Below, one piece after another: positions 1-19,362 of a stretch of 19,362 nucleotides of DNA. The notes below the pieces were generated by a model, which had not been told where the DNA came from, ran no database searches, and was given only the letters and a program-made list of their open reading frames with translations. Origin of the DNA: a virus (lineage: Duplodnaviria > Heunggongvirae > Uroviricota > Caudoviricetes). Where the stretch lies: positions 1 to 19,362 of the IMG/VR virus record IMGVR_UViG_2695420739_000013; one strand, 5' to 3'. The stretch's first letter is position 1, and each line of letters begins with the position of its first letter. The position numbers were made by a program, and so were the translations under genes.

Positions 1-24
1 CTTGCAGTTGCCAGACCGCAAGGT

Positions 25-119
25 GTTTTAACAAATCAAAAGGGGTTTTAATAACTGGCTCAAAGCTGAAAGCTTTCCGGAACCCCCAGCCTAGCTGGGG
101 GTTTTCTGTGCACAAAAAA
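25..119. repeat. Left copy of a 95-bp perfect inverted repeat; partner at 19268-19362. Contains an 8-bp-stem palindrome (83-101) followed by TTTT, and the last codons plus a tandem TAATAA stop of a plus-strand ORF entering from the left edge.
   Basis: Seen in sequence: the reverse complement of 19268-19362 is identical to 25-119; the match breaks at position 120 (C versus a 7th A). Confidence 0.85.
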
Positions 120-140
120 CGGGCGGTAATACCACCGCCC
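113..140 (-). terminator. Rho-independent terminator downstream of potD
   Basis: Seen in sequence: hairpin GGGCGGT-aatacc-ACCGCCC at 121-140, followed on the minus strand by a U-run (A-run 114-119 on plus), 11 bp after the potD stop. Confidence 0.6.
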
Positions 141-150
141 GCTTGCTGAA

Positions 151-1197
151 TTAACGTCCTGCTTTCAGCTTCTGATAATACTCTTCATAAATGCTGCTGG
201 CGGAGCCTACGTCATTCTGCCATTCACCATTTTTAATGGTTTCAGCATCCGGGTAGAGCGTTTTATCGTTCGCCACTTCCGGACTTAACAGCTTGCGCGC
301 CGCAAGGTTTGGCGTTGGATAACCGATAGTTTCAGCAACCTGTTTTGCCACATCCGGGCGCAGCAGGAAGTTGATCAATTTCAGTGCGCCTTCTTTGTTT
401 TTGGCATTTGCCGGGATCGCCAGGCTGTCCATCCAGAAAATGCCGCCTTCTTTCGGCCATACCACATCAATTGGCGTACCCGCCTGGCGTGCAACGAAAG
501 CAGAACCGTTCCAGATCATGCCGAGGTTAACTTCGCCTTCCATATACGGGTTAGCGGGGTTATCGGAGTTAAACGCCGCGACGTTTGGCATCAGTTTTTT
601 CAGCTCGTTGTATGCAGCTTCAATCTCTTTCGGATCGGTGGTGTTACCGGAGTAGCCCAGCTTACGCAGCGCCATCTGGAACACTTCTCGGGCATCGTCG
701 GTCAGCAGCAGGCTGCCTTTGTACTCAGGCTTCCACAGATCGGCCCAGCTGGTGACAGATTTCGGATCCACCGCATCACCGTTAACGCCAATCGCCGTTG
801 CACCCCAGATATACGGAATGGAATAGTCGTTATTCGGGTCAAACGGCTTGTTGAGCATGTCTGGATCGAGGTTGCTGAAATTGCTTAACTTCGACTTGTC
901 GATCTTCTGGATCATCCCTTCTTTACGCATTTTATCGACGTAATAGGTTGAAGGAACCACCAGGTCATAGGCACCGTCTTTGTACGTTTTCAGCTTCGCG
1001 TACATGGTTTCGTTCGACTCGTAAGTCGAATAGATAACCTTAATACCGGTTTCTTTGGTGAACTGTTCAAGCAGTCCTGGCGGCACGTACTCGGTCCAGT
1101 TGTAGAAATACAGCGTGTTGTTGTCATCGGCGTGAGCGGCGCTCATACCCAGTGCCAGAGCACCCGCCGCGAGCAGGTGGCGTGACCATTTTTTCAT
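151..1197 (-). CDS. potD: Spermidine/putrescine ABC transporter periplasmic substrate-binding protein PotD
   Basis: 348-aa ORF with an N-terminal signal peptide (MKKWSRHLLAAGALALGMSAAHA). I recognise the sequence as E. coli PotD (established knowledge). Its start overlaps the potC stop by 4 bp (ATGA). Confidence 0.95.
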   Translation of the reverse strand: MKKWSRHLLAAGALALGMSAAHADDNNTLYFYNWTEYVPPGLLEQFTKETGIKVIYSTYESNETMYAKLKTYKDGAYDLVVPSTYYVDKMRKEGMIQKIDKSKLSNFSNLDPDMLNKPFDPNNDYSIPYIWGATAIGVNGDAVDPKSVTSWADLWKPEYKGSLLLTDDAREVFQMALRKLGYSGNTTDPKEIEAAYNELKKLMPNVAAFNSDNPANPYMEGEVNLGMIWNGSAFVARQAGTPIDVVWPKEGGIFWMDSLAIPANAKNKEGALKLINFLLRPDVAKQVAETIGYPTPNLAARKLLSPEVANDKTLYPDAETIKNGEWQNDVGSASSIYEEYYQKLKAGR

Positions 1198-1988
1198 TTA
1201 ACGTCCCCTGTGTTACCTTTCGTTTTATCACGAGCAATAAGCTGGCTGGCAATTACCATCACCAGCGACAGCACCAGTAATATGGTTGCCAGCGCGTTAA
1301 CTTCCGGCGATACGCCGACTTTGACCATCGAATAAATTTTTAACGGCAGAATTTCATAACTCGGCCCGGTGACAAACGAAGAAACCACCACGTCGTCCAT
1401 CGACAGGGTAAAGCTTAACACCCAGCCCGCCGCTACCGCTGGCATTGCCAGAGGCAGAATGATTTTTCGCAGAATGGTAAATTCGCTGGCACCGAGATCT
1501 TTCGCCGCTTCCAGCATTCGCACGTCAAAACCTTTCAGGCGCGAATACACCGTCACCACCACAAACGGCAGGCAGAAGGTGATATGCGAGAACAGCAGCG
1601 ACCAGAAGCCAAGCTGAATACCCAGCAGCATAAACAGCACCAGCAGAGAAATCGCCATCACGATATCTGGCGACATCATCACCACAAACAGCATTCCGCT
1701 AACGAACGGCTTACCACGAAAGCGATAGCGGTACAGCGCAACTGCCGTCAGTGAACCGATAAGCGTGGCAAACGTCGCCGAAAACACCGCCATCGTCAGT
1801 GAATGCTGCGCTGCCTGTAACAGGCTGTCGTTGTTCATCAGCAGGCTATACCATTTGGTGGTAAAACCCTGCCAGTTGATGCCAAAGCGCGAGCTGTTAA
1901 AGGAGTTCACAATCAAAATAATGATTGGGATATACAGGTACGCGTAGATAGCGGTCATAAAACCGCCGCGAAGCAGTCGACCGATCAT
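1194..1988 (-). CDS. potC: Spermidine/putrescine ABC transporter permease PotC
   Basis: 264-aa hydrophobic multi-pass ORF, recognised as E. coli PotC. Translationally coupled to potD, and its ATG overlaps the stop of the upstream potB-frame ORF. Confidence 0.95.
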   Translation of the reverse strand: MIGRLLRGGFMTAIYAYLYIPIIILIVNSFNSSRFGINWQGFTTKWYSLLMNNDSLLQAAQHSLTMAVFSATFATLIGSLTAVALYRYRFRGKPFVSGMLFVVMMSPDIVMAISLLVLFMLLGIQLGFWSLLFSHITFCLPFVVVTVYSRLKGFDVRMLEAAKDLGASEFTILRKIILPLAMPAVAAGWVLSFTLSMDDVVVSSFVTGPSYEILPLKIYSMVKVGVSPEVNALATILLVLSLVMVIASQLIARDKTKGNTGDVK

Positions 1989-2149
1989 TCGAGTTCCACC
2001 TTCTTATTCATAAGGCGGGGTACTTTCAGGATTTTGAATTTATTCAATTTTTTCCTTTCTCCAAAATCTCTCCAAAACTTTTCCCCAAAACAAGGCCACG
2101 CATTTTACAACACTTTTTTCCTGAGATGGTGACGGATATTCCATATAGT
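1985..2149 (-). pseudogene. potB: Start-less 3'-terminal fragment in the potB frame (ends ...LMNKKVELE*, TGA overlapping the potC ATG); the rest of potB is absent
   Basis: Seen in sequence: an open frame of about 55 codons with no in-frame ATG runs from an upstream stop to the TGA in ATGA at 1985-1988. The integrase gene begins immediately beyond it. That this marks a phage attachment site in potB is inference. Confidence 0.35.
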
Positions 2150-2154
2150 GTTTG

Positions 2155-3273
2155 TCAAATAACCAACTTAACCCATTCCTGACCTCGGGTATCGTTATAG
2201 CGATCGGTGGTTGCCTGGACTTTATGTCCTAGTAAGGTTTTTGTATCGATACCCTGTGCACGGTACAGCCGTTCAGATAGAGAGCGTTGTTCATGAAATG
2301 TGGGCGGTGTTTTTCCTGCTGGTGGAATTATTCCAGCCAGATCCCGCGCTTTGGCAAAGTAGTCGCTCAGGTTGTCTTTACTCATCGGCTTTGGTTGTTT
2401 CTGGTGCCGACTATGGATTAGATATGGACTTAATATTCTGTCTCGGCATCCATCAATAACGTCTTTTAACGTTATCCCAATGGCATCACAGCGTAGTGTA
2501 AGCGGTAACGCCAGACGCATTCCGGTTTTTCCCTGGGTGATATGCAAGTGTTCGTTCCACACATCTGAAAAACGCATGTGGCAAATGTCATCACGGCGCT
2601 GACCAGTGACAATCGCAAGAAGCATTGCGTTACGGATAAAGTGTTTTTCCGGCGTTGCGTTGTAAATTTTTTGCCAGTCTTCCAGGGCGAGCCTGGCTCT
2701 GGTTACTTTAGGGATCGGTTTACGGGTAGCCTCCGGAGGATTCCATCCAGGAGGAACTTCCCCTGCATGTTGTGCTTCTTTATAAATATCAACCCATAAT
2801 CCGCGATTTACTCTCGCTGTGCTGACCATGTCTTTATCCAGCCATTCATCCAGTATTAATGCAAAGTCTCTTACTTCCAGGTCTTTCAATGGGTGATTTC
2901 CCAGGCGGGAAACCAGGTATGCAGCCATTCGAGTTTTTTCTTTGTGAGTTGTAGCTGCAATATCTCCATTTTTCAGTCGCGTGTCCTGTATTTTCAGATA
3001 TCGATCAACCCACGCCTTTAATCTGATACCCCGACGTTTTGTTGCTGACGGACTTTCATCAATTTTGCGCATGAAATATTCAGCTTCTGCTGCAGCTATC
3101 CGCTGATTGGCTGTGGAAGCGATTTTTTCTGCCTTACCTTTGTCTGTTCCGAGTCCGTGAAATTTTCCAGTCACAGGATTTTTATACTGGTAGTAAACTC
3201 TGCCAGTTCTGCGATCAAACTTTTCGTAAAGACCGGCTACGTCAGTGCTGTTTTTTCGTGGCCTCGGTGACAT
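2155..3273 (-). CDS. int: Lambda-family tyrosine integrase
   Basis: 372 aa. C-terminal catalytic region (..LAIVTGQRRDDICHMRFSDV.., ..PPTFHEQRSLSERLY.., ..TTDRYNDTRGQEWVKLVI) lines up with lambda Int including the catalytic Tyr context (established family knowledge). Sits next to the host junction. Confidence 0.9.
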   Translation of the reverse strand: MSPRPRKNSTDVAGLYEKFDRRTGRVYYQYKNPVTGKFHGLGTDKGKAEKIASTANQRIAAAEAEYFMRKIDESPSATKRRGIRLKAWVDRYLKIQDTRLKNGDIAATTHKEKTRMAAYLVSRLGNHPLKDLEVRDFALILDEWLDKDMVSTARVNRGLWVDIYKEAQHAGEVPPGWNPPEATRKPIPKVTRARLALEDWQKIYNATPEKHFIRNAMLLAIVTGQRRDDICHMRFSDVWNEHLHITQGKTGMRLALPLTLRCDAIGITLKDVIDGCRDRILSPYLIHSRHQKQPKPMSKDNLSDYFAKARDLAGIIPPAGKTPPTFHEQRSLSERLYRAQGIDTKTLLGHKVQATTDRYNDTRGQEWVKLVI

Positions 3274-3520
3274 GAGTTAAAATCTCCTTCAGTGCATCAT
3301 CATCGCCAGTATGAATTTCCGGCGCAATTCCCGTTTCACCAGGCCCAACAAATACTGCTCGGCGATCTATCAGCCAACGCCCACGAATTTTTTGTGGTCT
3401 TGGAACGATGTATCCTAGTTTTCCGTATTTCACCAGGGTAGTGTTTGTTATTGGGAGACTGAACCGTTTTGGTTTCCACTCGTCGAGCGTTATCAGGTAC
3501 TGTTCGCTCATGGCTATCAC
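3242..3520 (-). CDS. xis: Excisionase (Xis-like); true start probably the internal Met at 3511
   Basis: Small basic ORF directly upstream of int and overlapping its start. YLITLDEW...RGRWLIDRRAV resembles lambda Xis (YLTLQEW...VRRWVRE). Confidence 0.75.
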   Translation of the reverse strand: MIAMSEQYLITLDEWKPKRFSLPITNTTLVKYGKLGYIVPRPQKIRGRWLIDRRAVFVGPGETGIAPEIHTGDDDALKEILTHVTEATKKQH

Positions 3521-3572
3521 TCCGGAACGCGCCAGTTGCAGAATATCAACGACAACTGGCGACGGTTGAACA

Positions 3573-6047
3573 TTAAAAATCAGCCTGACTCGGGATCAGT
3601 TTTTGCCAGATAACTGAAACGTATTTTGCCTGGTAACGGGCGTCATCAAGTGCATTATGGCGCTCACCTTCGAATGGAATAGCCGTTCTGGCATCGAAGT
3701 CTATGGCTTTCCCCAGCTCAACGATTGTGCGTACATCGCGATCGTTGTAGTAACGCCACGGGGAGGGGATCCCCTGCCGTTCGTATGAACGGCGCAAAAT
3801 CGTGTTGTCGAAGTTGGCTCCATTTCCCCAGACCTGAACAAAAAATTCACCGGAGTTTTCGTCGATAAATTCCCGCAATTGTAACAGTGCATCATCTAAC
3901 GGGATTTCATCGGTCATAATGGCAGATTGCGCTTCGCGTGATTGCTTAAGCCACCATTTAATGGTGTCCCGATCAATGACTCCGCCAGCAGTTTCCAGAT
4001 CGATAGTCTTACTAAATTCCGGTCCCATATCTCCGGTTTGCGGATCGAAAAATATTGCACCTATTGAGATGATCGGGGCATCAGGATTTTTTCCCATGGT
4101 TTCAAGGTCGATCATTAGATGGTCACACGTCCTGCTGGTGGATGTGATAACGTGATGACCGTTCACCTTAATTGAGTGATCTGCCGTCTCGCCAGTTTCA
4201 CTATCGCTGGCGTGGTCCTGAGCGCTGCCAGCATTCTCCTTGTGTGGATGTTCAGCGCCTTCCATTTTCTCCGAATCGTCTTCCTGAACTTCAACCTGGT
4301 TCTTGTCATCGAATGTTTCCTGGTATGTTGCGTCGCCCATCACCGCGCCACAATCAGGGCAGTTGCCGCCGCCGGTCTGACCGCAGGCGGTGCAGATTTT
4401 TTCCGGTTCCTGTTGCGCTACTGGTTCAGGTTGTTTCGTTTCTGGCTCGTTTTGTAACGCATTTGGGCTGTTTTGTTCCGCTTTCTGGCCGTTCTGTTCC
4501 GTTTCTTGCTGGTTCTGATTCACTGAATCGCGGGTTTCAATCCCCTTCACCCATTTCGGATCATTCGGGTCGCTAATCCCTGCAACAAATTCACCACGTG
4601 ATACAGCAAGCAACTTATTGGCGTCAGGCTGGCTGATATTGGCTGCCTGCATAATTTTGTTTACTTCGTCAGCGGTAACTTTTACCGGCTCTGGTTGTGC
4701 GATCGTGTCAGATGCACCAGTATTTTGTTGTGAACCTGAGTACGTGCCGTTTTTACGTGCGAAGTATTCCTCTTTTGTGATTTCCGTAGCTCCCAGGGCC
4801 AGTGCTTTTTCCAGACCAGAAAGTTTGTTTGCGCGACCGTATTTTTCGCCGTCCTTATCAGTGAAAAGGAAGTAGAACGGTCCCTCACGCTCTACAGATG
4901 GTTCGTCTTCCACTTCGCATTCGGTTTTTTCGTTGTCCGGCATTGCCGTTTCCACTGCATCAGTTTCTGGTACTGGTGACGGGAGAGTACCAGCTGTGCC
5001 CTGATTTGTTCCTTCGTCATCTTCAAACACGCCCTTGGTAGTCAGGTATTCAGTGATGTATTTGTTCAGTGCTACGGGATCTTTGTGAATGTCGATCGGA
5101 CGCTCACGGACAAGGCCAAAAATAGTCTGACGGTCGTAGCGAACGGCATCGGGTTGTTTGCGCATTGATGCGGAAATGCGCTTCCAGTCTTCGCGATCTT
5201 TGTCGATAACTTCATTTTTTGCCCAGCGATGGATGCTGCCGTCAATGTTTCCGGTATCAATATCGCCAGGCCAGAGAGCGTAGGCCAGTTCTTCATCCAG
5301 CGTTTTCCATGTCTGCTTGTATTCGCGACAAATGGCGGCAGTGACTGGGTTGATTTTTCCTGCTGAGTTTTCAGTGTTCTGTTGATTGACTCTGGCGCTG
5401 GCGAGATCAACAACAGACGTGTATTTTCCAGTCTCTTTGCGCTCTGCGTCCTGCCGTTTTTTCCAGTTACGTAATTCAGCCTGAATTTCGGGCCATTTGG
5501 CACCCGGATTACATTTGTGTTTAACCCATCCGATAGCGAACAGTTTGCGTTCCGGATACATAGCGTTAATTTCAGGCGTTTTCATCAGTGCTTCAACGAT
5601 ATGCCCGTCAAAGGTAGCAACGTCTTCCTGCAGTAATTCCTGCGCGTCAATCGCCATATCAACGGTGATGTTTTCACATGTACCGAACTTAACCAGGACC
5701 GCGTTCTGTACTTCAAGGGACAGCTTGTCAAAATTGACGTTCATCGGATCGGATTCTGGTTCGACCGGAATAAAGGAAGCGGATTCCTCATCCCAGCGGT
5801 TTTCCTGCATATATTCAGCATCCCAGGAATCGAGGGCAGGGCGGGGTATACCGGGTTTATCCTCGCAAACAAGAAATTTATAAGCGCAGTCCTGAGCAGC
5901 CGGATAATGTTCCAGGAATTGCCAGTGAAATTTTGCGCGGGCGCGACGTTCATCACCGGCTTCAATGGCAGTGGCTACAGCGACGGCACCTTCTTCCTTT
6001 ATTGCCTGTTCATCAGGAATAGCAGCGCAAATAAAGACCTTACTCAT
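3573..6047 (-). CDS. Large phage exonuclease with a C-terminal DEDDh 3'-5' exonuclease domain (the type often annotated exodeoxyribonuclease VIII-like in E. coli prophages)
   Basis: 824 aa. The C-terminus carries DnaQ-like Exo I (MIDLETMG), Exo II (GNGANFDNTIL) and Exo III (HNALDDARYQ) motifs. A central Cys4 zinc ribbon (CTACGQ...CPDCG) and an acidic/Gln-rich linker are visible. Confidence 0.8.
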   Translation of the reverse strand: MSKVFICAAIPDEQAIKEEGAVAVATAIEAGDERRARAKFHWQFLEHYPAAQDCAYKFLVCEDKPGIPRPALDSWDAEYMQENRWDEESASFIPVEPESDPMNVNFDKLSLEVQNAVLVKFGTCENITVDMAIDAQELLQEDVATFDGHIVEALMKTPEINAMYPERKLFAIGWVKHKCNPGAKWPEIQAELRNWKKRQDAERKETGKYTSVVDLASARVNQQNTENSAGKINPVTAAICREYKQTWKTLDEELAYALWPGDIDTGNIDGSIHRWAKNEVIDKDREDWKRISASMRKQPDAVRYDRQTIFGLVRERPIDIHKDPVALNKYITEYLTTKGVFEDDEGTNQGTAGTLPSPVPETDAVETAMPDNEKTECEVEDEPSVEREGPFYFLFTDKDGEKYGRANKLSGLEKALALGATEITKEEYFARKNGTYSGSQQNTGASDTIAQPEPVKVTADEVNKIMQAANISQPDANKLLAVSRGEFVAGISDPNDPKWVKGIETRDSVNQNQQETEQNGQKAEQNSPNALQNEPETKQPEPVAQQEPEKICTACGQTGGGNCPDCGAVMGDATYQETFDDKNQVEVQEDDSEKMEGAEHPHKENAGSAQDHASDSETGETADHSIKVNGHHVITSTSRTCDHLMIDLETMGKNPDAPIISIGAIFFDPQTGDMGPEFSKTIDLETAGGVIDRDTIKWWLKQSREAQSAIMTDEIPLDDALLQLREFIDENSGEFFVQVWGNGANFDNTILRRSYERQGIPSPWRYYNDRDVRTIVELGKAIDFDARTAIPFEGERHNALDDARYQAKYVSVIWQKLIPSQADF

Positions 6048-6142
6048 TTTGTTTTAACCTCATTACAGATTTCAGGGTGAACGAATCCCTGCCATTGCTG
6101 GCATTTTTAATCCGTTGGTATGGTGTTAATATGGCTGGAGGG

Positions 6143-6331
6143 TTATCCAGCCGGTGTTTCGTTATTCAGGTACAGCGATACTTTTTTTACCGGGAGGCAT
6201 TCACCAGAAATTTTTTGCTCGTCTCTTGCCTGGAGGCAGGATTCTTTACTGGCATAAATTCTGGTAATCACATTCTGTGATTCACCCGTTATAAGAAAAA
6301 CCGTCATCATCAGTGCAAATGCTGAAGTCAT
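6143..6331 (-). CDS. Small protein translationally coupled downstream of dicB (YdfD-like by position)
   Basis: 62-aa ORF whose ATG overlaps the dicB stop (ATGA). The YdfD assignment is by synteny with the K-12 Qin dicB operon only; the sequence itself was not recognised with confidence. Confidence 0.45.
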   Translation of the reverse strand: MTSAFALMMTVFLITGESQNVITRIYASKESCLQARDEQKISGECLPVKKVSLYLNNETPAG

Positions 6332-6516
6332 TGACGTTCTCCGAAAATACCAAGTTCAAGAAGAGCAATTCGGGAAAGTATGGAATTATCATTGAGCAGA
6401 TAAGGCTCATATTTCCTCATATTAATGGCATCTTCAGTAAACTCCCGGTTACTGAGCAGAACACCAATATCAAAACAACCTTCAGACGTATTAACGTTTG
6501 GTAATAACGTTTCCAT
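6328..6516 (-). CDS. dicB: Cell division inhibitor DicB (MinC-activating)
   Basis: Internal Met of the 97-aa track ORF gives 62 aa, METLLPNVNTSEGCFDIGVLLSNREFTEDAINMRK..., matching my recollection of K-12 DicB (MKTLLPNVNTSEGCFEIGV...). GAGGA Shine-Dalgarno 7 nt upstream. Lies directly downstream of dicF. Confidence 0.75.
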   Translation of the reverse strand: METLLPNVNTSEGCFDIGVLLSNREFTEDAINMRKYEPYLLNDNSILSRIALLELGIFGERQ

Positions 6517-6534
6517 TATCGCGTCCTCAACAAT

Positions 6535-6680
6535 GAATTTTGTGATGCGGTGCCTGGTGCCTCCAGGTGACGTTAACCAGTTAACAATTAACGCCGGATA
6601 CAGAGAATCCACCCATAACACTGTTTTTGGTTTTAACTGTTCCGCGTGCGCTCAGCCGCATTCACCGCATCACAAAATTC
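6535..6680. repeat. 18-19-bp perfect inverted repeat (6535-6552 GAATTTTGTGATGCGGTG / 6663-6680 CACCGCATCACAAAATTC) enclosing ~110 bp between dicF and dicB
   Basis: Seen in sequence. In the minus-strand dicB-operon transcript the arms would form a long-range stem immediately 3' of dicF. Confidence 0.6.
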
Positions 6681-6687
6681 ACTTTAA

Positions 6688-6743
6688 AAACGGCGGCAGA
6701 GCAGTCACGGAGTAAAACTGATACCGCCAAACGTCACCAGAAA
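6688..6743 (-). ncRNA. dicF: DicF small RNA (ftsZ-repressing sRNA of the dicB operon)
   Basis: The minus-strand sequence UUUCUGGUGACGUUUGGCGGUAUCAGUUUUACUCCGUGACUGCUCUGCCGCCG followed by U-run matches the K-12 DicF sequence as I recall it, differing at about one position. Confidence 0.75.
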
Positions 6744-7019
6744 ATTGATAACAGAGGGCGTTGCAGCGGGGTTGTCACTTAAGCGTATGGTCAACCTGAC
6801 AACCCGGTGTCCTCAACGGGGGAAGGAATAACCCCGCCATACTTACCGCCGCGCCATTTCGCGGGTTGCCACAACCGGAAGCGCACGGTCGAATTAAATT
6901 TAACGACACCGTACAGTGAGACGAACTTCGCCGTGCGCTTTCGTGTTGTGTGCCTGCTTTTAACCACGTCAGGCGAGGTGGTATCCTTCTTATCCCGAAT
7001 AACCAAGAAGGAAATCTAT

Positions 7020-7220
7020 ATGACTAAAGAAGAATTTGTCTCTTATATTTTTGATAAAACGGTTGAAATGTATGCCGCTACTTACGGGTCCTGTAATCCT
7101 CTGAATAAACCAGAGGGGAAAGATGATTTCGACAAAATTTACCGCTTCTTGGAGGACCGCTATATCAAAAGGTTAGAGGACGCAGGGATCAAATCCCCAG
7201 TGAAGTCACCATTGTCCTGA
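7020..7220 (+). CDS. Hypothetical small protein (66 aa), antisense to the dicB-operon direction
   Basis: ATG preceded by AAGGAAA 8 nt upstream; protein-like composition. It is convergent with, and overlaps by 32 bp, the 3' end of the minus-strand ORF 7189-7566, so only one of the two may be real. Confidence 0.3.
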   Translation: MTKEEFVSYIFDKTVEMYAATYGSCNPLNKPEGKDDFDKIYRFLEDRYIKRLEDAGIKSPVKSPLS

Positions 7221-7566
7221 GAACTTGCAGGACGTCATGATCGTAACTTCCATCCAAACCGCGACGGCAAATTGCTTCTCGTATTACCGGAAGCAGTTCG
7301 CTGGAAATCTCGGTGCATATTTCACCTGATAATACGCTTGGCTCAAGTGAGAATATTGGTGAACTTACGGTCTTGGTCTCGACAGTTTCAGAGTCAGTGC
7401 CAACATTATAAAGCTCAACGAAAGCGGTCTTGATTTTCCGGGCCAGATCTTTTGCTGGCTCGCTTGCAATATCTTTCCCGATTTCTCGCAGCACAGAATG
7501 CAATGTATGAGCTGCTGTTTTCTGTACATCAGACGGTAAATCTTTAAATTCCATCGTCAGCCTCAT
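7189..7566 (-). CDS. Hypothetical prophage early protein (dicB-operon position)
   Basis: 125-aa ORF coupled to the upstream ORF (ATGA overlap). No motif recognised. Confidence 0.5.
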   Translation of the reverse strand: MRLTMEFKDLPSDVQKTAAHTLHSVLREIGKDIASEPAKDLARKIKTAFVELYNVGTDSETVETKTVSSPIFSLEPSVLSGEICTEISSELLPVIREAICRRGLDGSYDHDVLQVLRTMVTSLGI

Positions 7567-7846: not shown

Positions 7847-7909
7847 ATATTTAATGCAAAATAAAGCCAATACATTGAAATGTAAGGCTTTAAAATTTGT
7901 GAAGGGGGG

Positions 7910-11360: not shown

Positions 11361-12206
11361 ATGAGGAAAAAATCGTTTGGACGTTGCCCGTTTGATTTCG
11401 ACGAAGATGTAAAAAAAATAGCCGCGATAAATAAATATATCCATGCGAAATTTGAGAGGCATAAAAATAAAATAGATAACCTAAAGGGGGTGGAACAAAA
11501 ATTGATGGTTTTACATTACTTTAATGTACTGAATGAACTTAGTAATCAGGCTATATTTTCTTTGAGTACCGGAGCCTTTTCAGCATCGGAAGTATTAACT
11601 AGAGTTATAATGGAACAGGCTGCCAATCAATTTTATATAGCAATTGATGATGGAAAAAATGCACAAGCATTACTCAAGGGTAGTAAGAAATTAGTTCATA
11701 GTAATGGGAAACGGTGGCTGGAGTGTTTAAAATCCAAAGAAATGACTAATCCAGCAGCAGATGAAAGGATTCGTATCGGAAAAGAGCTAACTGATATGTT
11801 TAATAGATTGTGGCCAAATACACCTGAATATCCTGGAACCAAAAAGCTTTTCGAAGTAATTGGCTGGGAAACACACTATCATGCCTATTACGTCCCTCTT
11901 TGTGATTCAATACATACATTCTCTGATGATATGGCAAATATAGTATCTCTATATAATGCAATCCAAAGCGATAAAACTACTGCTATCGAACTCACTCTTG
12001 CAGTTAAACAAGAAAATAAACGGCTGGCAATTTATAATGTCGTAATTGCTATTGGCCTGCGGTGTGAGGCCTTAGTAAATGTATTTAACTCTTTAGGTTA
12101 TCGAGATATTATAACTGAAATGGCGCCAACAATAGATGCAGTCAACCAGATTATAATTCGATATGATGATTTCGAACATTCCAGAATTTTTATTGTCAAT
12201 AATTAA
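11361..12206 (+). CDS. Hypothetical protein (281 aa), no recognisable catalytic motif; first gene of the AT-rich accessory island
   Basis: Long ORF with a perfect AGGAGG Shine-Dalgarno 7 nt upstream. Visibly AT-rich and Lys/Asn/Ile-rich, contrasting with the flanking prophage genes. Confidence 0.75.
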   Translation: MRKKSFGRCPFDFDEDVKKIAAINKYIHAKFERHKNKIDNLKGVEQKLMVLHYFNVLNELSNQAIFSLSTGAFSASEVLTRVIMEQAANQFYIAIDDGKNAQALLKGSKKLVHSNGKRWLECLKSKEMTNPAADERIRIGKELTDMFNRLWPNTPEYPGTKKLFEVIGWETHYHAYYVPLCDSIHTFSDDMANIVSLYNAIQSDKTTAIELTLAVKQENKRLAIYNVVIAIGLRCEALVNVFNSLGYRDIITEMAPTIDAVNQIIIRYDDFEHSRIFIVNN

Positions 12207-12259
12207 TTGGCAGAATTCGTACATGCACAACAACTAGTTATAGTTGACCTATTTCGCTC

Positions 12260-12828
12260 TTGAGAGACAACCATACTCAAATCTTCCACATTGCAGGAGA
12301 TTTGAGTATGAATACGTCACCGAGGAACAAAGACAGTATCATAGGCCCAAAAAGACCACTTCAGATATCTCATATCTGGGGGCTCCAAATCCGGCTTGAA
12401 CTGGAAGGTAAAACGCGTGATTTAGCTCGGTTTCAAGCAGAGCTACGGTGCTGCAACTGAAAAACTGGCAGTCCTATCCAATTTGAGATAACCAAAGGGA
12501 CAAGAGAAGCTGTTTCTGCATTGATAAAGCTTGGCAATTTACGCAGTAAAGACTACTTGTTCCGATCTCGGGTCGGTACTAACCAACACATATCAATCCT
12601 GCAATATAACCGAATCTTTCATAGGGGGGAGAAAAGCTTGGTCTCGAAGATTCGCTTTACAGCACACATTCCATGAGAAGAACAAAACCTTGCCTTGTCT
12701 GCAAGAAAACTAAGAATCTCCGGGTGATCCAACTTCCGTTGGGCCATAAGAAAACGGAAAGCACAGTTCGTTATCTGGGTATAGAAGTTGATGATGCATT
12801 AGAGATCTCTGAATCGATCGAAGTCTAA
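12260..12828 (+). pseudogene. Decayed tyrosine recombinase/integrase: C-terminal catalytic domain only, with an in-frame TGA and a frameshift
   Basis: The stitched translation ..KTGSPIQFEITKGTREAVSAL..DYLFRSRVGTNQHISILQYNRIFHRG/GEKLGLEDSLYSTHSMRRTKP..LGHKKTESTVRYLGIEVDDAL.. carries the H-x-x-R and LLGH...Y motifs of tyrosine recombinases. Stop at 12458-12460; frame change within a G6 run at 12624-12629; no N-terminal domain. Confidence 0.6.
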
Positions 12829-13240
12829 AGCTGTCAGGGCTGCAGCAGCAGCCCTGTGCCAAGAGCGTACCAATATATGTCTCAAAAAATTGGGCACAGG
12901 TCAATATCAATACCAACAACTCTGATTGTGCTCATGTGATTTACTCCTGTAGAAAACGCAGACAGTAAAAATATTTCACTGGCTGCTTCAGACAGGGCGT
13001 CCATCATATCATTACATAACAATAGCGGGGCACGATATCTAGACATGCAGCAACGATGGACATAGAATGAGTACAATCAAAAGCATGTTTAACTACTTTA
13101 ATTTAAAAATCTTAGAATCTTAGGTGTAGAGTTCAATACTTAGTTACATACCCTTTTGAAAGCATCACAAATCATAACTATGAGCCTGTTAAAGGCATAG
13201 GTATTCTTAATTAAGAGCATTTTAATGAGAGAAAAATAAA

Positions 13241-14614
13241 ATGAAAAGACTATATTATACCCATCATGATAGTCGAACCTTAAAACTTGCTATAGAAGGT
13301 GATGTTTCTGATAATGCGAATATTTTTACAGTAATTGTAGGTAAAAATGGCGTTGGAAAAAGCAGATTGTTATCTCAGATTGCTAAAGACTGTATTCAAG
13401 ATGTTCATTTCTTGAAAACTTTTAATCCATTATTTGACAGAGAAATAACACCAAAGTTAATTGCCGTATCTACCAGCCCATTCGATAAATTCCCTCCAGG
13501 GCGTAGGTCATTAAATCACCAAAGGAAAGAAAATAATTATCGCTATGTGGGTATGCGTGGAGAAGGCCCCTTCGGCGTATCAAATGCCGTATCCCTTTTA
13601 TCTTCAGCAGCGAGAGGTTGGCTAGAGAAACTTGCTTATTCAGAAAATCCTGCAAATTTACTCGATGTTTTTCATTCTATTGATTTTGAGCCCCATATAG
13701 AGTTTGTATTTAAACCAACTTACAACGGACCGGACACTCCTGACTATAACTTCATTGGTGTATATTCAGATGAGATATTAACGGAAGTTAAGGAGTTATA
13801 TTTAAAATACAATATAAAAATTGACAGGAAGAATATTGAGAGTCTCTTAAAGTTAAACTCCGAATCACGTCATGATATTTACGAAGCACTGGTTGAAATT
13901 AATCGATTTGAACCTGAACGTAGGGCTGTAACCTTGTCAGTCGATTTTACCAATGGTGAAACATTGGTTGGCTCGACTTATGCGAATAATTATTTTTCTA
14001 GATCAATTCTTAAACTTATGAACGCTGGCTTCATGAGATTGATGGATATGCGACTCATAAAAAAAAGCTATGGTCCCATGTCACTTAAACGTGCGAGCTC
14101 GGGAGAACAATGTTTATTAGTGATGTTGCTTGGAATTGCAGGGCATATAACTGATGGTTCTATAATATTAATTGATGAACCGGAAATAAGCTTGCATCCT
14201 CGATGGCAGGAAGAGTTTATCATTATGTTAACAAAAGCATTTTTAACTTACTCAGGTTGTCAATTCATAATTGCAACTCATTCACCACAAATAATATCCA
14301 ATTTGCCGAATAAAGGTTGTTATATAACATCTTTGTCGAAAAGTTATCTTTATAAAGCAAAATACTTTAGCAACCGGTCTGCAGACTATCAACTTGCGGA
14401 ACTATTTGATGCCCCTGGCATTATGAATGAATACATTGCCAGGTTAGCTTTCAATTTACTTTCAAAAGTTAAGACTGCTAAGTTAGTAACAGATGATAAT
14501 TGGCGTGAATTAAAACAACTCCAACTTCTCCTTGAAAACGTTAATAGTAATGACCCTATTAATGAACTCGTAAATTCCGTATCTCAGGTGTGTGAAATTT
14601 ATGCCAAAAATTAA
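13241..14614 (+). CDS. ABC-type (AAA_15/AAA_21-like) ATPase, Septu PtuA-like
   Basis: 457 aa. Walker A GKNGVGKS (residues 34-41), ABC-signature-like SSGEQ, Walker B IILIDEPE, D-loop SLHP, H-loop ATHSP. AT-rich. Its 3' end overlaps the following HNH gene. Confidence 0.85.
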   Translation: MKRLYYTHHDSRTLKLAIEGDVSDNANIFTVIVGKNGVGKSRLLSQIAKDCIQDVHFLKTFNPLFDREITPKLIAVSTSPFDKFPPGRRSLNHQRKENNYRYVGMRGEGPFGVSNAVSLLSSAARGWLEKLAYSENPANLLDVFHSIDFEPHIEFVFKPTYNGPDTPDYNFIGVYSDEILTEVKELYLKYNIKIDRKNIESLLKLNSESRHDIYEALVEINRFEPERRAVTLSVDFTNGETLVGSTYANNYFSRSILKLMNAGFMRLMDMRLIKKSYGPMSLKRASSGEQCLLVMLLGIAGHITDGSIILIDEPEISLHPRWQEEFIIMLTKAFLTYSGCQFIIATHSPQIISNLPNKGCYITSLSKSYLYKAKYFSNRSADYQLAELFDAPGIMNEYIARLAFNLLSKVKTAKLVTDDNWRELKQLQLLLENVNSNDPINELVNSVSQVCEIYAKN

Positions 14615-15236
14615 AAATCCAATTAGATTCAGCGCAGAGTCATTAGATATTATTGAGAAAAAATTGTCTTCTCCAGATTTTAAGCATACCAACTGGGGAG
14701 ATGATGATTTGCAAGTTCTCCGTGCAGAAATTAGAAATCATTACAGAGAAGAACAAAAGCTAGAATGTGTATATTGTCATGAGCCTATTGGGGTAAGAGC
14801 TGCACAAGCTGCTCCTATAGAGCATATTGTGCCAAAATCTCAATATCTATGTTTTATTTTTGAACCTAAGAATCTATGTGTAGTATGTCCTGACTGCAAT
14901 GAATTCAAAGGTAAAAATGAAGTGTTATTTGAACCCGTAATAAATGGGGGGCGGCGCAAAAACTATCCAACTGCATCTGCATCATTTCGCATCGTTCATC
15001 CACATATAGATGATTATGAGATGCATATTATAAAAGCAAATCGTGTTTATGTGGACAAAACACCTAAAGGGCACTATACCATTGGAATATGTAAACTAAA
15101 TAGATTTTTTCATTATTTTGGGATGTGTGATGAATTTGTTAATGATGCAAAAATTGCTGAGACAAATGAAAATTTTTTCAAAAAAGGTAGTATTACTACT
15201 AATGAATTATTGGATGATGACATTCATTTGATTTAA
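14601..15236 (+). CDS. HNH endonuclease, Septu PtuB-like
   Basis: ATG at 14601 (track ORF from GTG 14592) overlaps the ATPase gene by 14 bp. HNH-type motifs CVYCH...EHIVPKS...CVVCPDCN (two CxxC pairs flanking the catalytic His). Confidence 0.85.
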   Translation: MPKIKNPIRFSAESLDIIEKKLSSPDFKHTNWGDDDLQVLRAEIRNHYREEQKLECVYCHEPIGVRAAQAAPIEHIVPKSQYLCFIFEPKNLCVVCPDCNEFKGKNEVLFEPVINGGRRKNYPTASASFRIVHPHIDDYEMHIIKANRVYVDKTPKGHYTIGICKLNRFFHYFGMCDEFVNDAKIAETNENFFKKGSITTNELLDDDIHLI

Positions 15237-15549
15237 CTATGAATTATTATATTGTAAAGTAATCAGGTAAGATATGTTAGACAGTGAGACTATTGCCTTA
15301 CAGAATTCATTATTCTTATGGATCGCCTTTCTGACTGATTTCATATTGGCGGGGTAACGGGAGTTAAGTAGAATGGCTGCGGGTGCTTGAGGCTATCTGT
15401 CTCAGGCATGAACACCAAAGGCAGATAGAGAAAAGCCCCAGTTAACATTACGCGTCCTGCAAGACGCTTAACATTAATCTGAGGCCAATTTCATGCTAGA
15501 CACATGTAGGTTAGCCTCTTACGTGCCGGAAGGCAAGGAGAAGCAGGCT

Positions 15550-15705
15550 ATGAAGCAGCAAAAGGCGATGTTAATCGCCCTGATCGTCATCTGTTTAACC
15601 GTCATAGTGACGACACTGGTAACGAGGAAAGACCTCTGCGAGGTACGAATCCGAACCGGCCAGACGGAGGTCGCTGTCTTCACAGCTTACGAACCTGAGG
15701 AGTAA
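15550..15705 (+). CDS. hokD: Hok/Gef-family type I toxin (HokD/RelF-like), 51 aa
   Basis: MKQQKAMLIALIVICLTVIVTTLVTRKDLCEVRIRTGQTEVAVFTAYEPEE matches K-12 HokD as I recall it, differing at about one residue. The in-frame upstream extension from 15493 is what the ORF track reports as 70 aa. Confidence 0.85.
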   Translation: MKQQKAMLIALIVICLTVIVTTLVTRKDLCEVRIRTGQTEVAVFTAYEPEE

Positions 15706-15774
15706 GAGACCCGGCGAGGGAGAAATCCCTCGCCACCTCTGATGTGGCAGGCATCCTCAACGCACCCGCACTTA

Positions 15775-15805
15775 ACCCGCTTCGGCGGGTTTTTGTTTTT
15801 ATTTT
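15775..15805 (+). terminator. Rho-independent terminator downstream of hok
   Basis: Seen in sequence: CCCGC-ttcg-GCGGG followed by TTTTTGTTTTTATTTT. Confidence 0.5.
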
Positions 15806-15921
15806 CAACGCGTTTGAAGTTCTGGACGGCGCCGGAATAGAATCAAAAATACTTAAGTAGCGCGCAGGGATAAGAGGGATGGTCCCTTAAAGGGGAGAGC
15901 TAATTATCCGGAAGGATTCTG

Positions 15922-16173
15922 ATGATGAACATCGAAGAACTGCGTAAAATTTTTTGTGAAGATGGCCTCTATGCTGTGTGCGTTGAAAATGGAAATCTTG
16001 TTAGTCATTACCGCATTATGTGTTTGCGAAAGAATGGGGCTGCGTTAATTAATTTTGTGGATGGTCGAGTGACAGACGGATTTATCTTGCGCGAAGGTGA
16101 GTTTGTCACTTCATTACAGGCACTGAAAGAGATCGGAATAAAAGCAGGCTTTTCAGCTTTTGCAGAAGAATAA
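15922..16173 (+). CDS. Small prophage protein, Rem-like by position (Qin order hokD-rem-ydfU)
   Basis: 83-aa ORF with a GGAAGGA Shine-Dalgarno. The assignment rests on size and synteny, not on confident sequence recognition. Confidence 0.55.
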   Translation: MMNIEELRKIFCEDGLYAVCVENGNLVSHYRIMCLRKNGAALINFVDGRVTDGFILREGEFVTSLQALKEIGIKAGFSAFAEE

Positions 16174-16239
16174 ACTCATCTACAATCTTGCGCGGGGCTG
16201 AACTCCCGCTGAGTAACACCGTGCCACCGGAGAAAACCG

Positions 16240-16518
16240 ATGGCACGCAACGTAAAATATTACAATTCTGATAATTCGCCCGTTCTTGCCTGCACGCACG
16301 AGCGGTATTCTCACGCATTCAAGTCTGAATGGTTCCAACACCCTCCATGTACTGAAGAGCAGGCTGAATGGATAATTCAGTGTTACCGCAGGCGCGGATA
16401 CGAGGTTAAGAAAGCCCTTAGTCTCGACTACCGTCACTGGATAATCTCCGTCAGGCTTCCTTACTCTGAACGCCCACCGCGTCCGTCTCGCACATTCCAG
16501 CAACGCATCTGGAGGTAA
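16240..16518 (+). CDS. Hypothetical prophage protein (92 aa)
   Basis: ORF with a GGAG Shine-Dalgarno, directly abutting the downstream DUF968 gene. No motif recognised. Confidence 0.45.
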   Translation: MARNVKYYNSDNSPVLACTHERYSHAFKSEWFQHPPCTEEQAEWIIQCYRRRGYEVKKALSLDYRHWIISVRLPYSERPPRPSRTFQQRIWR

Positions 16519-16519
16519 C

Positions 16520-17569
16520 GTGCGGGTATTACTTCGACCTGTTCTGGTACCGGAACTCGGGCTGGTGATCGTTAAGCCGGGCCGTGAATCCATGCCAGTA
16601 TTCCACAATACCCGGGTATTGATGGAGCCGGAACCGAAAAGCATGCGTAATCTGCCGTCCGGGGTCGTTCCTGCCGTTCGCCAGCCGCTGGAGGAAGACA
16701 AAACATTGCTGCCGTTTTTCAGTAACGCACGGGTGATTCGTGCTGCTGGTGGTGCAGGTGCATTGTCTGACTGGCTGTTGCGCCATATTAAATCCTGCCA
16801 GTGGCCACACGGCGATTATCATCACAGCGAAACTGTCATTCACCGTTATGGTACCGGCGCAATGGTGTTGTGCTGGCACTGCGACAACCAGCTGCGTGAC
16901 CAGACATCCGAATCACTCGAGCAACTTGCTCATCAAAACCTGTCAGCATGGATGATTGACGTCATCGGTCACGCAATAAGCGGTACGCAGGAGCGTGAAT
17001 TATCTTTGGCTGAATTATCCTGGTGGGCGGTCCGCAATCAGGTGGCGGACGCGCTACCGGAAGCGGTATTACGTCGTTCGCTGGGGGTGCGTGCGGAAAA
17101 AATCCGCTCAATGTACCGTGAAAGCGACATCGTGCCGGGAGAGCAGACCGCCACCAGCATACTGAAGCAGCGCACAAAAAATATTGCGTTACTGCCTGAC
17201 GTCCACCAGCAACAGAACCCACCACAGGAAAAGACGGTGGTCAGCATTGCCGTTGATCCTGAGTCTCCGGAATCTTTCATGAAACGACCTAAACGTCGCC
17301 GCTGGGTTAACGAGAAATACACACGCTGGGTGAAGACTCAGCCGTGTGCGTGTTGTGGTAAGCCAGCCGACGATCCCCATCACCTGATTGGTCATGGTCA
17401 GGGCGGAATGGGGACAAAATCTCACGATATTTTCACGCTACCGCTGTGTCGGGAGCATCACAACGAGCTTCATGCGGATCCGCTGGCGTTCGAAGAAAAG
17501 CATGGCTCTCAGGTTGATTTAATTTTTCGTTTTCTTGATCACGCCTTTGCAACTGGCGTGCTTGGGTAA
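16520..17569 (+). CDS. DUF968-family prophage protein (YdfU-like) with a C-terminal Cys/His-rich HNH-like region
   Basis: 349 aa, GTG start. C-terminus ..CACCGKPADDPHHLIGHG...LPLCREHHNELH.. Position upstream of rusA and Q matches Qin-type prophages. Confidence 0.7.
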   Translation: MRVLLRPVLVPELGLVIVKPGRESMPVFHNTRVLMEPEPKSMRNLPSGVVPAVRQPLEEDKTLLPFFSNARVIRAAGGAGALSDWLLRHIKSCQWPHGDYHHSETVIHRYGTGAMVLCWHCDNQLRDQTSESLEQLAHQNLSAWMIDVIGHAISGTQERELSLAELSWWAVRNQVADALPEAVLRRSLGVRAEKIRSMYRESDIVPGEQTATSILKQRTKNIALLPDVHQQQNPPQEKTVVSIAVDPESPESFMKRPKRRRWVNEKYTRWVKTQPCACCGKPADDPHHLIGHGQGGMGTKSHDIFTLPLCREHHNELHADPLAFEEKHGSQVDLIFRFLDHAFATGVLG

Positions 17570-17581
17570 AAGAGGTGACTG

Positions 17582-17953
17582 ATGCTCATAGATTTGGTTT
17601 TACCTTACCCGCCGACGGTGAACACTTACTGGCGACGCCGTGGCAGCACATATTTTATCTCGGAGGAGGGAAAGCGTTATCGCCGGGCTGTGGCGCTTAT
17701 TGTTCGCCAGCAGCGGCTGAAATTAAGCCTGTCCGGAAGGCTGGCGATAAAGGTGATTGCAGAGCCACCGGATAAGCGCCGTCGTGACCTGGACAATATC
17801 CTGAAAGCACCACTGGATGCGCTGACGCATGCCGAACTTCTCATAGACGACGAGCAGTTTGATGAAATCAATATTGTGCGCGGTCAGCTCGTTCCTGGTG
17901 GGCGACTGGGCGTGAAGATTTACGAAATCACAGGTGATAACGATGGCGCGTGA
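17582..17953 (+). CDS. rusA: Holliday-junction resolvase RusA
   Basis: 123 aa. ..[19 protein letters not shown].. and the overall pattern match RusA (K-12 has ..DRRRRDLDNLQKAAFDALT..). Confidence 0.85.
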
Positions 17954-18329
17954 TATTCAGCAGGTTATGGAACGGTGGGGGGCTTGGGCTGCAAACACTC
18001 ATGAAGATGTATCCTGGGCGTCGATCGCTGCTGGTTTTAAAGGGTTAATTCCGTCGAAAGTGAAATCACGTCCTCAGTGTTCTGATGATGATGCAATGAT
18101 AATTTGTGGCTGTATGGCCCGGTTAAACAAGAAAAATCAGGATTTGCACGATTTGCTGGTGGATTATTACGTATATGGAATGACTTTTATGAGTCTGGCA
18201 CGGAAACTTGGATGTTCGGATACCTGTGTTGGTAAGCGCCTGCAGAAGGCGGAAGGGGTTATCGATGGCATGTTGATGATGCTTGATATCCGGCTGGAGA
18301 TGGACAGATATGTAGAACGAATTATGTAG
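17943..18329 (+). CDS. Late-gene antiterminator Q (QuuD/phage-21-type)
   Basis: Start at ATG 17943 overlapping the rusA stop (track ORF from GTG 17934). [35 protein letters not shown]...[18 protein letters not shown]... closely matches K-12 QuuD as I recall it. Confidence 0.8.
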
Positions 18330-18334
18330 GTGCT

Positions 18335-18364
18335 TGACCATATACATTGTCCGGGGCTATATTC
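18335..18364 (+). promoter_or_regulatory. Candidate Q-dependent late promoter (pR'-like)
   Basis: TTGACC at 18335-18340, an 18-bp spacer, then TATATT at 18359-18364, immediately downstream of Q. Confidence 0.45.
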
Positions 18365-18425
18365 CTCGCGCGTCAGCAAAATCTGGCGTCGGGATTGGAA
18401 CCCCGGATATTCAACCGCGACAGAC

Positions 18426-18450
18426 ACACGCCGCGAGCGTGTTTTTTATT
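18426..18450 (+). terminator. tR'-like intrinsic terminator ending a short leader transcript (Q antitermination target)
   Basis: Seen in sequence: ACACGC-cgcga-GCGTGT then TTTTTTATT, about 60-80 nt downstream of the candidate late promoter. Confidence 0.5.
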
Positions 18451-18611
18451 GTCGTAAGCACACGCACATCTGAATAATGGTGGGGCGTATGGGGGAGCTG
18501 AAAGGCTCGCCGGTTGGTTGATCCGGTAGTTCCAACCCTGTACGTCTCACCACCCAATGATTGGAACCTGACGGTGGTGATAGTTAAATCCATCAACCAG
18601 AGGGCGTTATC

Positions 18612-19172
18612 ATGACGACTCAAGTTTCTGTCGAAACTCTTTCCCCGATCACACACAACCAGCTCCCAGTTGTCACTACAGAGTTACTGGCCAAACTATA
18701 TGGCTGTAGCGTCGAGTGTATTCATAGAAATCACCACCGTAATAAAGAGCGATTTGCAGAAGGGAAGCACTACATAATTGCGAAAGGCGCAGACCTCCAA
18801 AATTTGAAAATCTCTTTAAGGGATTTTCAAACGATCGCCCCAAATGTCCGAAAGCTCATACTCTGGACAGAACGCGGAGCAGCCCGTCACGCCAAAATGC
18901 TCGAAACCGATCAGGCGTGGGAAGTATTCGAAAAACTGGAAGACTGTTATTTCAACCAAAAACAACCACCAGCGGCACAAAACACATCTATCGAAAATGA
19001 TGGATGCGCATTACTGATCCACTTCGATAAACATGGTCAGGTTGAGTTCACGGAAAAGGTGCCCGCCGATGCGATGGTATGCACTCTGGAACGGTTTAAA
19101 TTTTATCTGGAGCAACACGGGTGGATCGTTGCCCGTAAAGAGCAACTGGTGGAGCGGTTGATGCGGCTTTAA
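18612..19172 (+). CDS. Hypothetical protein in the Q-proximal moron position; possible ORF6N/KilA-N-like N-terminal DNA-binding domain (weak)
   Basis: 186-aa ORF with a GAGGG Shine-Dalgarno, followed by an intrinsic terminator. The family guess comes from a loose N-terminal pattern only. Confidence 0.65.
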   Translation: MTTQVSVETLSPITHNQLPVVTTELLAKLYGCSVECIHRNHHRNKERFAEGKHYIIAKGADLQNLKISLRDFQTIAPNVRKLILWTERGAARHAKMLETDQAWEVFEKLEDCYFNQKQPPAAQNTSIENDGCALLIHFDKHGQVEFTEKVPADAMVCTLERFKFYLEQHGWIVARKEQLVERLMRL

Positions 19173-19247
19173 AAATTTCCCCCGAACGCTTTACGATCGT
19201 AAAAAGTTGAATATACTGTTAAGAGTGGTTACTACGCCGCACAGCTT

Positions 19248-19273
19248 AAACCCGCCGATGAGCGGGTTTTTTT
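19248..19273 (+). terminator. Rho-independent terminator after the 186-aa gene
   Basis: Seen in sequence: AAACCCGC-cgatga-GCGGGTTT followed by a 7-T run. Confidence 0.55.
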
Positions 19274-19362
19274 GTGCACAGAAAACCCCCAGCTAGGCTG
19301 GGGGTTCCGGAAAGCTTTCAGCTTTGAGCCAGTTATTAAAACCCCTTTTGATTTGTTAAAAC
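19268..19362. repeat. Right copy of the 95-bp perfect inverted repeat (partner 25-119); truncated by the window end
   Basis: Seen in sequence: exact reverse complement of 25-119. The match reaches the final base of the window, so the repeat may be longer. Confidence 0.85.

Follow-up and report, generated by a model that had tools for sequence, protein, structure and literature searches.

The inverted repeat at the two ends of the DNA analyzed here (19,362 nt, hereafter the window) very probably stems from two separate copies of IS200C in opposite orientation, each represented by its left end and inserted just after a terminator. IS200C is a 711-bp insertion sequence of the IS200/IS605 family, and the arms correspond to its transposase-upstream left end (LE; the first ~90-113 nt). 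A repeat search of the whole window reported a single inverted pair, with arms of 95 nt at 25-119 and 19268-19362 that are 100% complementary and separated by 19148 nt. Direct reading of both ends concurred, confirming the initial annotation, in which 25-119 was described as the exact reverse complement of 19268-19362. By arithmetic, ~1e-49 perfect inverted pairs of 95 nt would be expected by chance in 19.4 kb. The outer 6 bases of each arm (114-119 and 19268-19273) lie outside the repeated element and belong to the T-tracts of two different host terminators, the coincidence of which adds 6 nt to the 95-nt repeat. IS sequence within the window is limited to 1-113 and 19274-19362.

The left copy (1..113, - strand) runs from IS nt 113 to nt 1 and the right copy (19274..19362, + strand) covers IS nt 1-89, with an ambiguity of 0-2 T at each boundary (113-115 and 19272-19274, respectively). 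Both are 100% identical to L001 and L002, two complete 711-bp IS200C copies annotated in RefSeq, which differ from each other only at nt 200 and beyond. The start codon (ATG) of tnpA is at IS nt 144, so that the window stops 30 nt (left) and 54 nt (right) before it and contains no tnpA; the gene would be on the - strand beyond the window's left edge for the left copy, and on the + strand beyond its right edge for the right copy. In finished genomes, the copies at the same sites encode a protein of 152 amino acids with a match to Pfam Y1_Tnp (PF01797; 1.7e-37). Both arms also scored above the gathering threshold (56 bits) of the Rfam model RF01405 (STnc490), the left arm with 111.1 bits (1-103, - strand) and the right arm with 82.2 bits (19284-19362, + strand), the 3' end of the match being cut by the window edge in each case. 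In a comparison with E. coli IS200C, there is 100% identity over the visible 113 and 89 nt, the same insertion sites occur in finished genomes, and the subterminal hairpin and multi-copy occurrence are shared. No difference is seen in the visible part, the window being without tnpA and the right end (RE).

Each arm contains a hairpin and T-run of its own, as noted initially, and folding gave a stem of 10 bp. This LE subterminal hairpin (AACCCCCAGC-TAG-GCTGGGGGTT, IS nt 11-33) is located at 79..103 in the left copy (- strand; DNA fold, z = -4.9) and, with the same sequence, at 19284..19306 in the right copy (+ strand; DNA fold, z = -4.3). In the IS200/IS605 family the LE hairpin is presumed to be the binding site of TnpA. 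At its 5' foot, the hairpin shares bases with the tetranucleotide AAAA (IS nt 9-12). Folding of the reference copy produced an RE hairpin, CCTCCGGC-TAT-GCCGGAGG; AAAA precedes both the LE and the RE hairpin, and the RE terminates in TTATT. The left end of IS200 comprises a bidirectional terminator at nts 12-34, a transcription start site at ~nt 40 and art200 (PMC4513863). Salmonella IS200 (707 bp, compared to 711 bp for the E. coli variant; Beuzon et al. 1999, Ellis et al. 2015, PMC4513863) shares this left-end layout with the arms, the terminator hairpin (nts 12-34, versus nt 11-33 here) being followed by the tnpA 5'UTR with the art200/STnc490 region. By this likeness, the hairpin and T-run in each arm would be the bidirectional terminator of IS200 itself, shielding tnpA from outside transcription, and the remainder of the arm may constitute the tnpA promoter and 5'UTR region, which would also encode the art200/STnc490 RNA. 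Note that the Rfam model matches the tnpA-sense strand here, whereas STnc490/art200 is described as antisense (PMC4513863). The 'convergent ORF' ending LAVARPQGVLTNQKGF* that had been proposed for the arms is not a gene. In a complete element copy (L001 3983-4051) it amounts to 22 codons, an antisense frame within the tnpA 5'UTR.

Both insertion sites are known from finished genomes in the filled and in the empty state. At the left junction the window agrees with strain 7/2 at 140/140 positions; in that strain, an annotated 'IS200/IS605-like element IS200C family transposase' lies directly beside the match, and ymfA and potD are separated by a complete IS200C copy. At the right junction it agrees at 243/243 positions with Z1322HEC0003 and Z1323HEC0108, which carry a complete IS after the prophage ORF6N gene; in Z1322HEC0003 the junction then leads into the same tnpA as at the potD site. 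We aligned filled and empty sites as pairs, strain 7/2 with E2348/69 for the left locus and Z1322HEC0003 with SCU-125 for the right. The alignments revealed a clean 711-bp insertion at both loci with the element limits GTGCAC...ATATTTATT and no target-site duplication at either locus. The element ends are unlike and without terminal inverted repeats. The empty potD site in E2348/69 reads ...CCGCCCGTTTTTT/ATTTAGC, and the empty ORF6N site in SCU-125 reads ...GAGCGGGTTTTTTT/GTGCCCGAAAAGC. Because empty sites exist for both loci, the two insertions are independent, and each is polymorphic among E. coli genomes.

The initial annotation had placed a terminator beside each arm, and both are real. 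The target of the left copy is the potD intrinsic terminator (114..145, - strand), a hairpin followed by T6, recognized by a consensus match at 136-122 on the - strand in the terminator scan, by folding and from the empty site. The target of the right copy is the intrinsic terminator of the prophage ORF6N gene (19248..19273, + strand), a hairpin followed by T7, with a consensus match at 19248-19269 on the + strand and the same additional support from folding and the empty site. The unique segment between the IS copies (120..19267), defined from the homologous regions of strain 7/2, E2348/69 and Z1322HEC0003, contains potD and potC, and then one half of a lambdoid prophage, from the integrase to ORF6N, with int/xis and the early and regulatory region. 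This prophage is integrated next to potC, and Pfam matches were obtained for the integrase and ORF6N.

We next consider the distribution of the element. Window positions 1-140 match 9806 places in 2465 of 5426 complete E. coli genomes (median 2, maximum 35 per genome), 673 of these places being on plasmids. The arms, as the IS200C left end, are thus a common interspersed multi-copy element, a possibility which the initial annotation had set against its own reading. Nor does the repeat represent the normal flank downstream of potD, as had been suggested for checking: the potD site is filled in only 6 and empty in 5419 of the 5425 matching genomes (5426 searched). This count was obtained with a junction-weighted query; a count of 2224 genomes at ≥80% coverage was dropped, since the IS by itself makes up 85% of that query. 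The ORF6N site is filled with a complete IS in two genomes, Z1322HEC0003 and Z1323HEC0108, each with one IS200C copy. Both insertions together were found in no complete genome of the collection, and no inversion isomers were seen. Strain 7/2, which has the left junction, carries no IS in its potC prophage. Note that a match in E2348/69 that reaches window position 19362 is a different IS200C copy located ~8 kb further along its prophage, and not the same insertion.

The position of both copies directly after T6 or T7 of a terminator reflects a broader preference. A hairpin with a T-run is found directly 5' of 36 of 40 distinct IS200-like LE junctions from other genera, compared to 47 of 5000 random positions and 10% of T-runs of at least 5. 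Compared with T-tracts at large, hairpins are 9-fold enriched at those used for insertion (36/40 versus 10%). The last five flanking bases at the 40 junctions are TTTTT in 26 cases, TTATT in 7 and TTGTT in 3. The target preference of the IS, and not a duplicated flank, accounts for the location of both arms beside a terminator. Terminators have already been linked statistically to IS200/IS605 elements in the literature (PMC13548323), and a guide/target mechanism has been described for the family (PMC6006769). Our literature search for an explicit statement of the target specificity of IS200 returned only the statistical terminator association (PMC13548323 and a preprint) and the general family mechanism. 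Judging from family membership (PMC6006769), each copy would have arrived by single-strand 'peel and paste' transposition, with TnpA setting the element 3' of a short target, TT[T/A/G]TT, presumably read by the guide AAAA beside the subterminal hairpin. Such a guide-read short target would account for both copies abutting a terminator T-tract.

As in IS608 and ISDra2, the architecture appears to fit guide-directed cleavage, with AAAA 5' of each subterminal hairpin, and the short target TT[T/A/G]TT that flanks the LE resembles the last bases of the RE, TTATT. In contrast to these elements, the target is a T-tract and not TTAC or TTGAT, and the near-universal hairpin just upstream of the target distinguishes the present junctions from the described IS608 model. 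It is conceivable, though doubtful, that IS200-group elements home actively to intrinsic terminators, the hairpin and T-tract mimicking their own right end (hairpin plus ...TTATT). If so, target choice would be guided by structure as well as sequence, beyond the short target sequence of IS608 and ISDra2. The preference could instead arise from selection on the surviving insertions rather than from target choice. The terminator association is useful for annotating IS200 boundaries and for thinking about target choice.

Several other readings of the inverted repeat were weighed. The inverted IS200C pair might bound a 19-kb segment whose orientation in the source genome is, or once was, reversed through homologous recombination. 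The copies are inverted relative to each other and identical across their visible part, ~711 bp of homology is sufficient for RecA recombination, and, judging from the geometry, inverting the segment would leave the junctions between LE and flank in the window unchanged. Such an inversion, which would move potDC and the prophage early region away from the genes usually next to them, is nevertheless quite improbable: the collection contains neither a genome with both insertions nor isomers, ymfA is located beside potD and ORF6N beside the prophage late region in all complete genomes examined, and the window itself gives no sign of an inverted state. There is even less reason to regard the IS pair as a composite transposon or other mobile unit bearing the 19-kb segment, despite the presence of a block of genes flanked by two copies of one IS. 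IS200/IS605 elements are asymmetric, and TnpA requires LE and RE on one strand (PMC6006769). The segment has an LE at both of its inner boundaries, facing outward-in, so that no LE...RE unit spans it, and potD and potC are core chromosomal genes in their normal place, leaving this reading a negligible probability. The pair also resembles att sites and the segments inverted by Hin, Gin or Cin in bracketing a block with prophage DNA. However, att cores are short direct repeats, and Hin/Gin/Cin-type crossover sites measure ~26 bp and are accompanied by a serine invertase gene, whereas the repeat here is the end of a transposable element with one arm in the core chromosome outside the prophage. 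A prophage attL/attR pair was rejected, as it had been initially: the repeat is inverted rather than direct, and the left arm lies beyond potD, outside the prophage, while the right arm lies inside it.

Two further readings concern the arms as such. An assembly artefact (a chimeric join or fold-back contig), the repeat then not being present at both genomic places, is suggested by the fact that the repeat reaches the last base of the window and starts within 24 nt of its first; repeats at the tips are a classic signature of this kind. However, finished genomes contain each junction of flank and IS independently and in exact form: strain 7/2 and five more have the left one, and two genomes have the right one. 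Moreover, the flanks of the two arms differ, and each is a genuine terminator whose empty site is known; we consider an artefact very unlikely. Somewhat less remote, but still improbable, is that IS200C survives in one arm or in both only as a truncated solo left end, with no complete element behind it. No more than 89 and 113 nt of the IS are visible in the window. In strain MFDS1019527 the same ORF6N terminator is followed by IS nt 1-108 only, after which unrelated phage DNA begins, and the annotation lists no tnpA there. The flank bearing this remnant, however, is only 94.9% identical to the window, and the left arm already runs beyond nt 108, the length of the MFDS1019527 remnant. The left and right junctions, in contrast, are fully identical (140/140 and 243/243) to those of strain 7/2 and of Z1322HEC0003 and Z1323HEC0108, in which the IS is complete.

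With the arms read as the left ends of two IS200C copies, a false lead is removed: the terminal inverted repeat consists of two copies of a well-known IS, with the window edges inside both. The 95-base repeat is ordinary and matters little in itself. In principle, the inverted copies could support RecA-mediated inversion, and the window by itself does not reveal the orientation and linkage of the 19-kb potDC-prophage segment. The overall reading in the initial annotation is upheld in part: the repeat is not an att pair and a contig end is plausible, but it is not a duplicated flank. The suggestion that the repeat is longer than the window shows is probably correct, as the copies at the same sites measure 711 bp; in the source genome it would probably run on for the full ~711 bp.

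Most likely, the window is a short-read contig that ends inside both copies, the multi-copy repeat having been collapsed in assembly. The contig-end explanation proposed initially is plausible. At least 20 of the 40 junctions coincide with true ends of contigs, which retain 61-227 nt of the IS, and one contig consists of the IS alone (713 nt). The ORF6N terminator of the right copy is also where two draft E. coli contigs with the filled-site haplotype end. The window may just as well be an excerpt from a finished genome. The length of IS kept differs between the window ends (113 versus 89 nt), a difference that a single fixed k-mer overlap does not predict. Polymorphism between IS copies was considered as its cause; the two reference copies differ only at nt 200 and beyond.

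A repeat search of the window returned a single inverted pair, positions 25-119 and 19268-19362 (95 nt, 100% complementary), and direct reading of both ends agreed, bearing out the exact terminal repeat reported in the initial annotation. By chance, perfectly complementary inverted arms of 95 nt would be expected ~1e-49 times in 19.4 kb. The arms do lie beside two different intrinsic terminators, as had been proposed; a consensus scan recovered both, that of potD at 136-122 (minus strand) and that of the 186-aa ORF6N gene at 19248-19269 (plus strand).

The terminal repeat is made up of IS200C, a known insertion sequence with many genomic copies, present here as an inverted pair that the window edges cut through; it is ordinary and already known. 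Of 5426 complete E. coli genomes, 2465 contain matches to window 1-140, at 9806 places in all (per genome median 2, maximum 35; 673 of the places plasmid-borne), so the sequence is an interspersed repeat. With the arms belonging to a common element present in many copies, an outcome that the initial annotation had itself named as refuting, the earlier suggestion of a special feature or duplicated flank falls. In strain 7/2, window 1-140 is identical over 140/140 positions; the match sits between ymfA and potD, and the adjoining gene is annotated 'IS200/IS605-like element IS200C family transposase'. Z1322HEC0003 and Z1323HEC0108 both carry the right junction (window 19120-19362) with 243/243 identity. 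Beyond it, Z1322HEC0003 has the same transposase gene (tnpA) and then the remainder of a lambdoid prophage, whereas Z1323HEC0108 has an IS3-type transposase gene between tnpA and the remaining prophage. The tnpA product at this junction is a Y1_Tnp protein (PF01797, 1.7e-37). Two reference IS200C elements, each 711 bp, are identical to the window arms over nt 1-113 and nt 1-89. Independent of IS annotation, the Rfam family STnc490, an IS200 left-end RNA, matches both arms (1-103, minus strand; 19284-19362, plus strand), each match having its 3' end cut by the window edge.

The IS limits were set by comparing filled and empty sites at both insertions. The empty potD site of E2348/69 reads ...ACCGCCCGTTTTTT/ATTTAGC, with the IS at the slash in strain 7/2; the empty ORF6N site of SCU-125 reads ...GAGCGGGTTTTTTT/GTGCCCGAAAAGC, with the IS at that point in Z1322HEC0003. 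The element is therefore GTGCAC...ATATTTATT, its limits ambiguous by at most 2 T. Neither locus shows a target-site duplication, and the two IS ends differ from each other, both of which are expected of an IS200/IS605 element. The IS occupies window 1-113 and 19274-19362; the outer six bases of each arm (114-119 and 19268-19273) are T-tracts of different host terminators that coincide by chance. The hairpin-plus-T-run noted inside each arm is present: folding placed it at IS nt 11-33 (CCCCCAGC-TAG-GCTGGGGG plus flanking A/T pairs). [quoted passage not shown] Subterminal hairpins are the transposase binding target in this family (PMC6006769). The supposed convergent ORF in the arms spans 22 codons, runs antisense to the tnpA 5'UTR and is hence not a gene. 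At the left end of IS200C the Rfam STnc490 model matches in the tnpA-sense direction (window 1-103, minus; 19284-19362, plus), whereas in the account of Ellis et al. 2015 (PMC4513863) STnc490/art200 lies antisense to this 5'UTR; this looks like a strand discrepancy between the paper and the Rfam seed.

The potD site is filled in 6 of the 5426 complete genomes and the ORF6N site in only 2 of the complete E. coli collection, each with one IS200C copy; no genome of the 5426 has both filled. The potC prophage of strain 7/2 has no IS inside. The arms are two independent insertions, not one duplicated flank. Since finished genomes contain each of the junctions, an assembly chimera is improbable. If the inverted copies are full-length, the 19-kb segment could be inverted by RecA-dependent recombination between them. 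Junctions of the IS left end (LE) with its flanks would be identical in either orientation, so the window cannot tell inverted from uninverted, but positive evidence for inversion was not found. The geometry rules out a composite transposon: the two copies face each other with their LEs, whereas members of this family need LE and the right end (RE) on one strand.

tnpA is absent from the window. Truncated copies have a parallel in strain MFDS1019527, which carries a 108-nt solo LE remnant (locus L005, 1589-1696), joined to unrelated phage DNA and without tnpA, at the same prophage terminator; this remnant shows decay or recombination at the ORF6N insertion. However, the window flank matches the complete-copy genomes exactly, compared with 94.9% for the remnant flank, making truncation very improbable. 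Of 40 IS200-like junctions, at least 20 fall where a contig genuinely ends, keeping 61-227 nt of the IS; in one case the IS makes up the whole contig (713 nt), and two draft E. coli contigs (227 kb) of the filled-site haplotype both end at the same ORF6N terminator. The window looks like a contig broken within the IS at both tips. We infer this rather than assert it because the retained lengths differ (113 vs 89 nt); the window may possibly have been cut out of a finished genome.

The 40 distinct junctions came from IS200-like left ends sampled at one genome per species (loci among L001-L121; Escherichia, Yersinia, Serratia, Kluyvera, Phytobacter, Kosakonia, Citrobacter, Vibrio and others). 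By a simple rule, a GC-rich hairpin and T-run lay directly 5' of the IS in 36; the remaining 4 had imperfect hairpins, seen by eye. By comparison, such a structure was present at 47 of 5000 random positions (~1%) and, across these loci, at 10% of T>=5 runs. The last five flanking bases were TTTTT in 26 junctions, TTATT in 7 and TTGTT in 3. IS200-like elements of Enterobacterales and Vibrio almost always insert directly 3' of a terminator-like hairpin and T-tract. Terminator-like sequences have been reported as statistically over-represented just upstream of IS200/IS605 elements (PMC13548323 and a preprint), so this observation is not new. In the family, a guide tetranucleotide located 5' of the hairpin foot base-pairs both with the LE-flanking target and with the final RE bases (PMC6006769). 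AAAA precedes both subterminal hairpins of IS200C and its RE terminates in TTATT; an AAAA guide, the T-rich LE flank and TTATT would fit this guide/target rule. The hairpin excess at targets could reflect target mimicry of the RE, single-strand accessibility or survival of harmless insertions.

Elsewhere in the window, the prophage early region holds a gene pair that matches the Septu defence system (13241-15236, plus strand), an AAA ATPase of 457 aa and an HNH nuclease of 214 aa (PADLOC: PtuA 1.2e-165, PtuB 1.1e-83). Rfam matches to prophage regulatory RNAs at the gathering score include DicF (6691-6742, minus), sok (15381-15555, plus; hokD-like ORF at 15493-15705) and a c4-a1b1, isrK and C4 antisense RNA cluster (18357-18557, plus) just upstream of the ORF6N gene, an arrangement resembling the P1/P7-type antirepressor immunity module. 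In the replication-gene region, a 24-nt unit (AANACACCCAAAAACGG...) occurs in three direct copies (9415-9593, plus; spacing 89 and 66 nt) that look like lambdoid origin iterons. A mosaic joint lies at 3564. To its right, the window is 99.8-99.9% identical to the Z1322HEC0003 and Z1323HEC0108 prophages, which have a different chromosomal site and integrase module; the potDC-int-xis part reaches at most ~97% full-length identity to any finished genome. The lambdoid prophage directly adjoins potC on its upstream, potB-facing side (window 1988-2155; comparison loci L003 and L133) and thus splits the potABCD operon into potAB and potCD, an arrangement also found in E2348/69 and strain 7/2.
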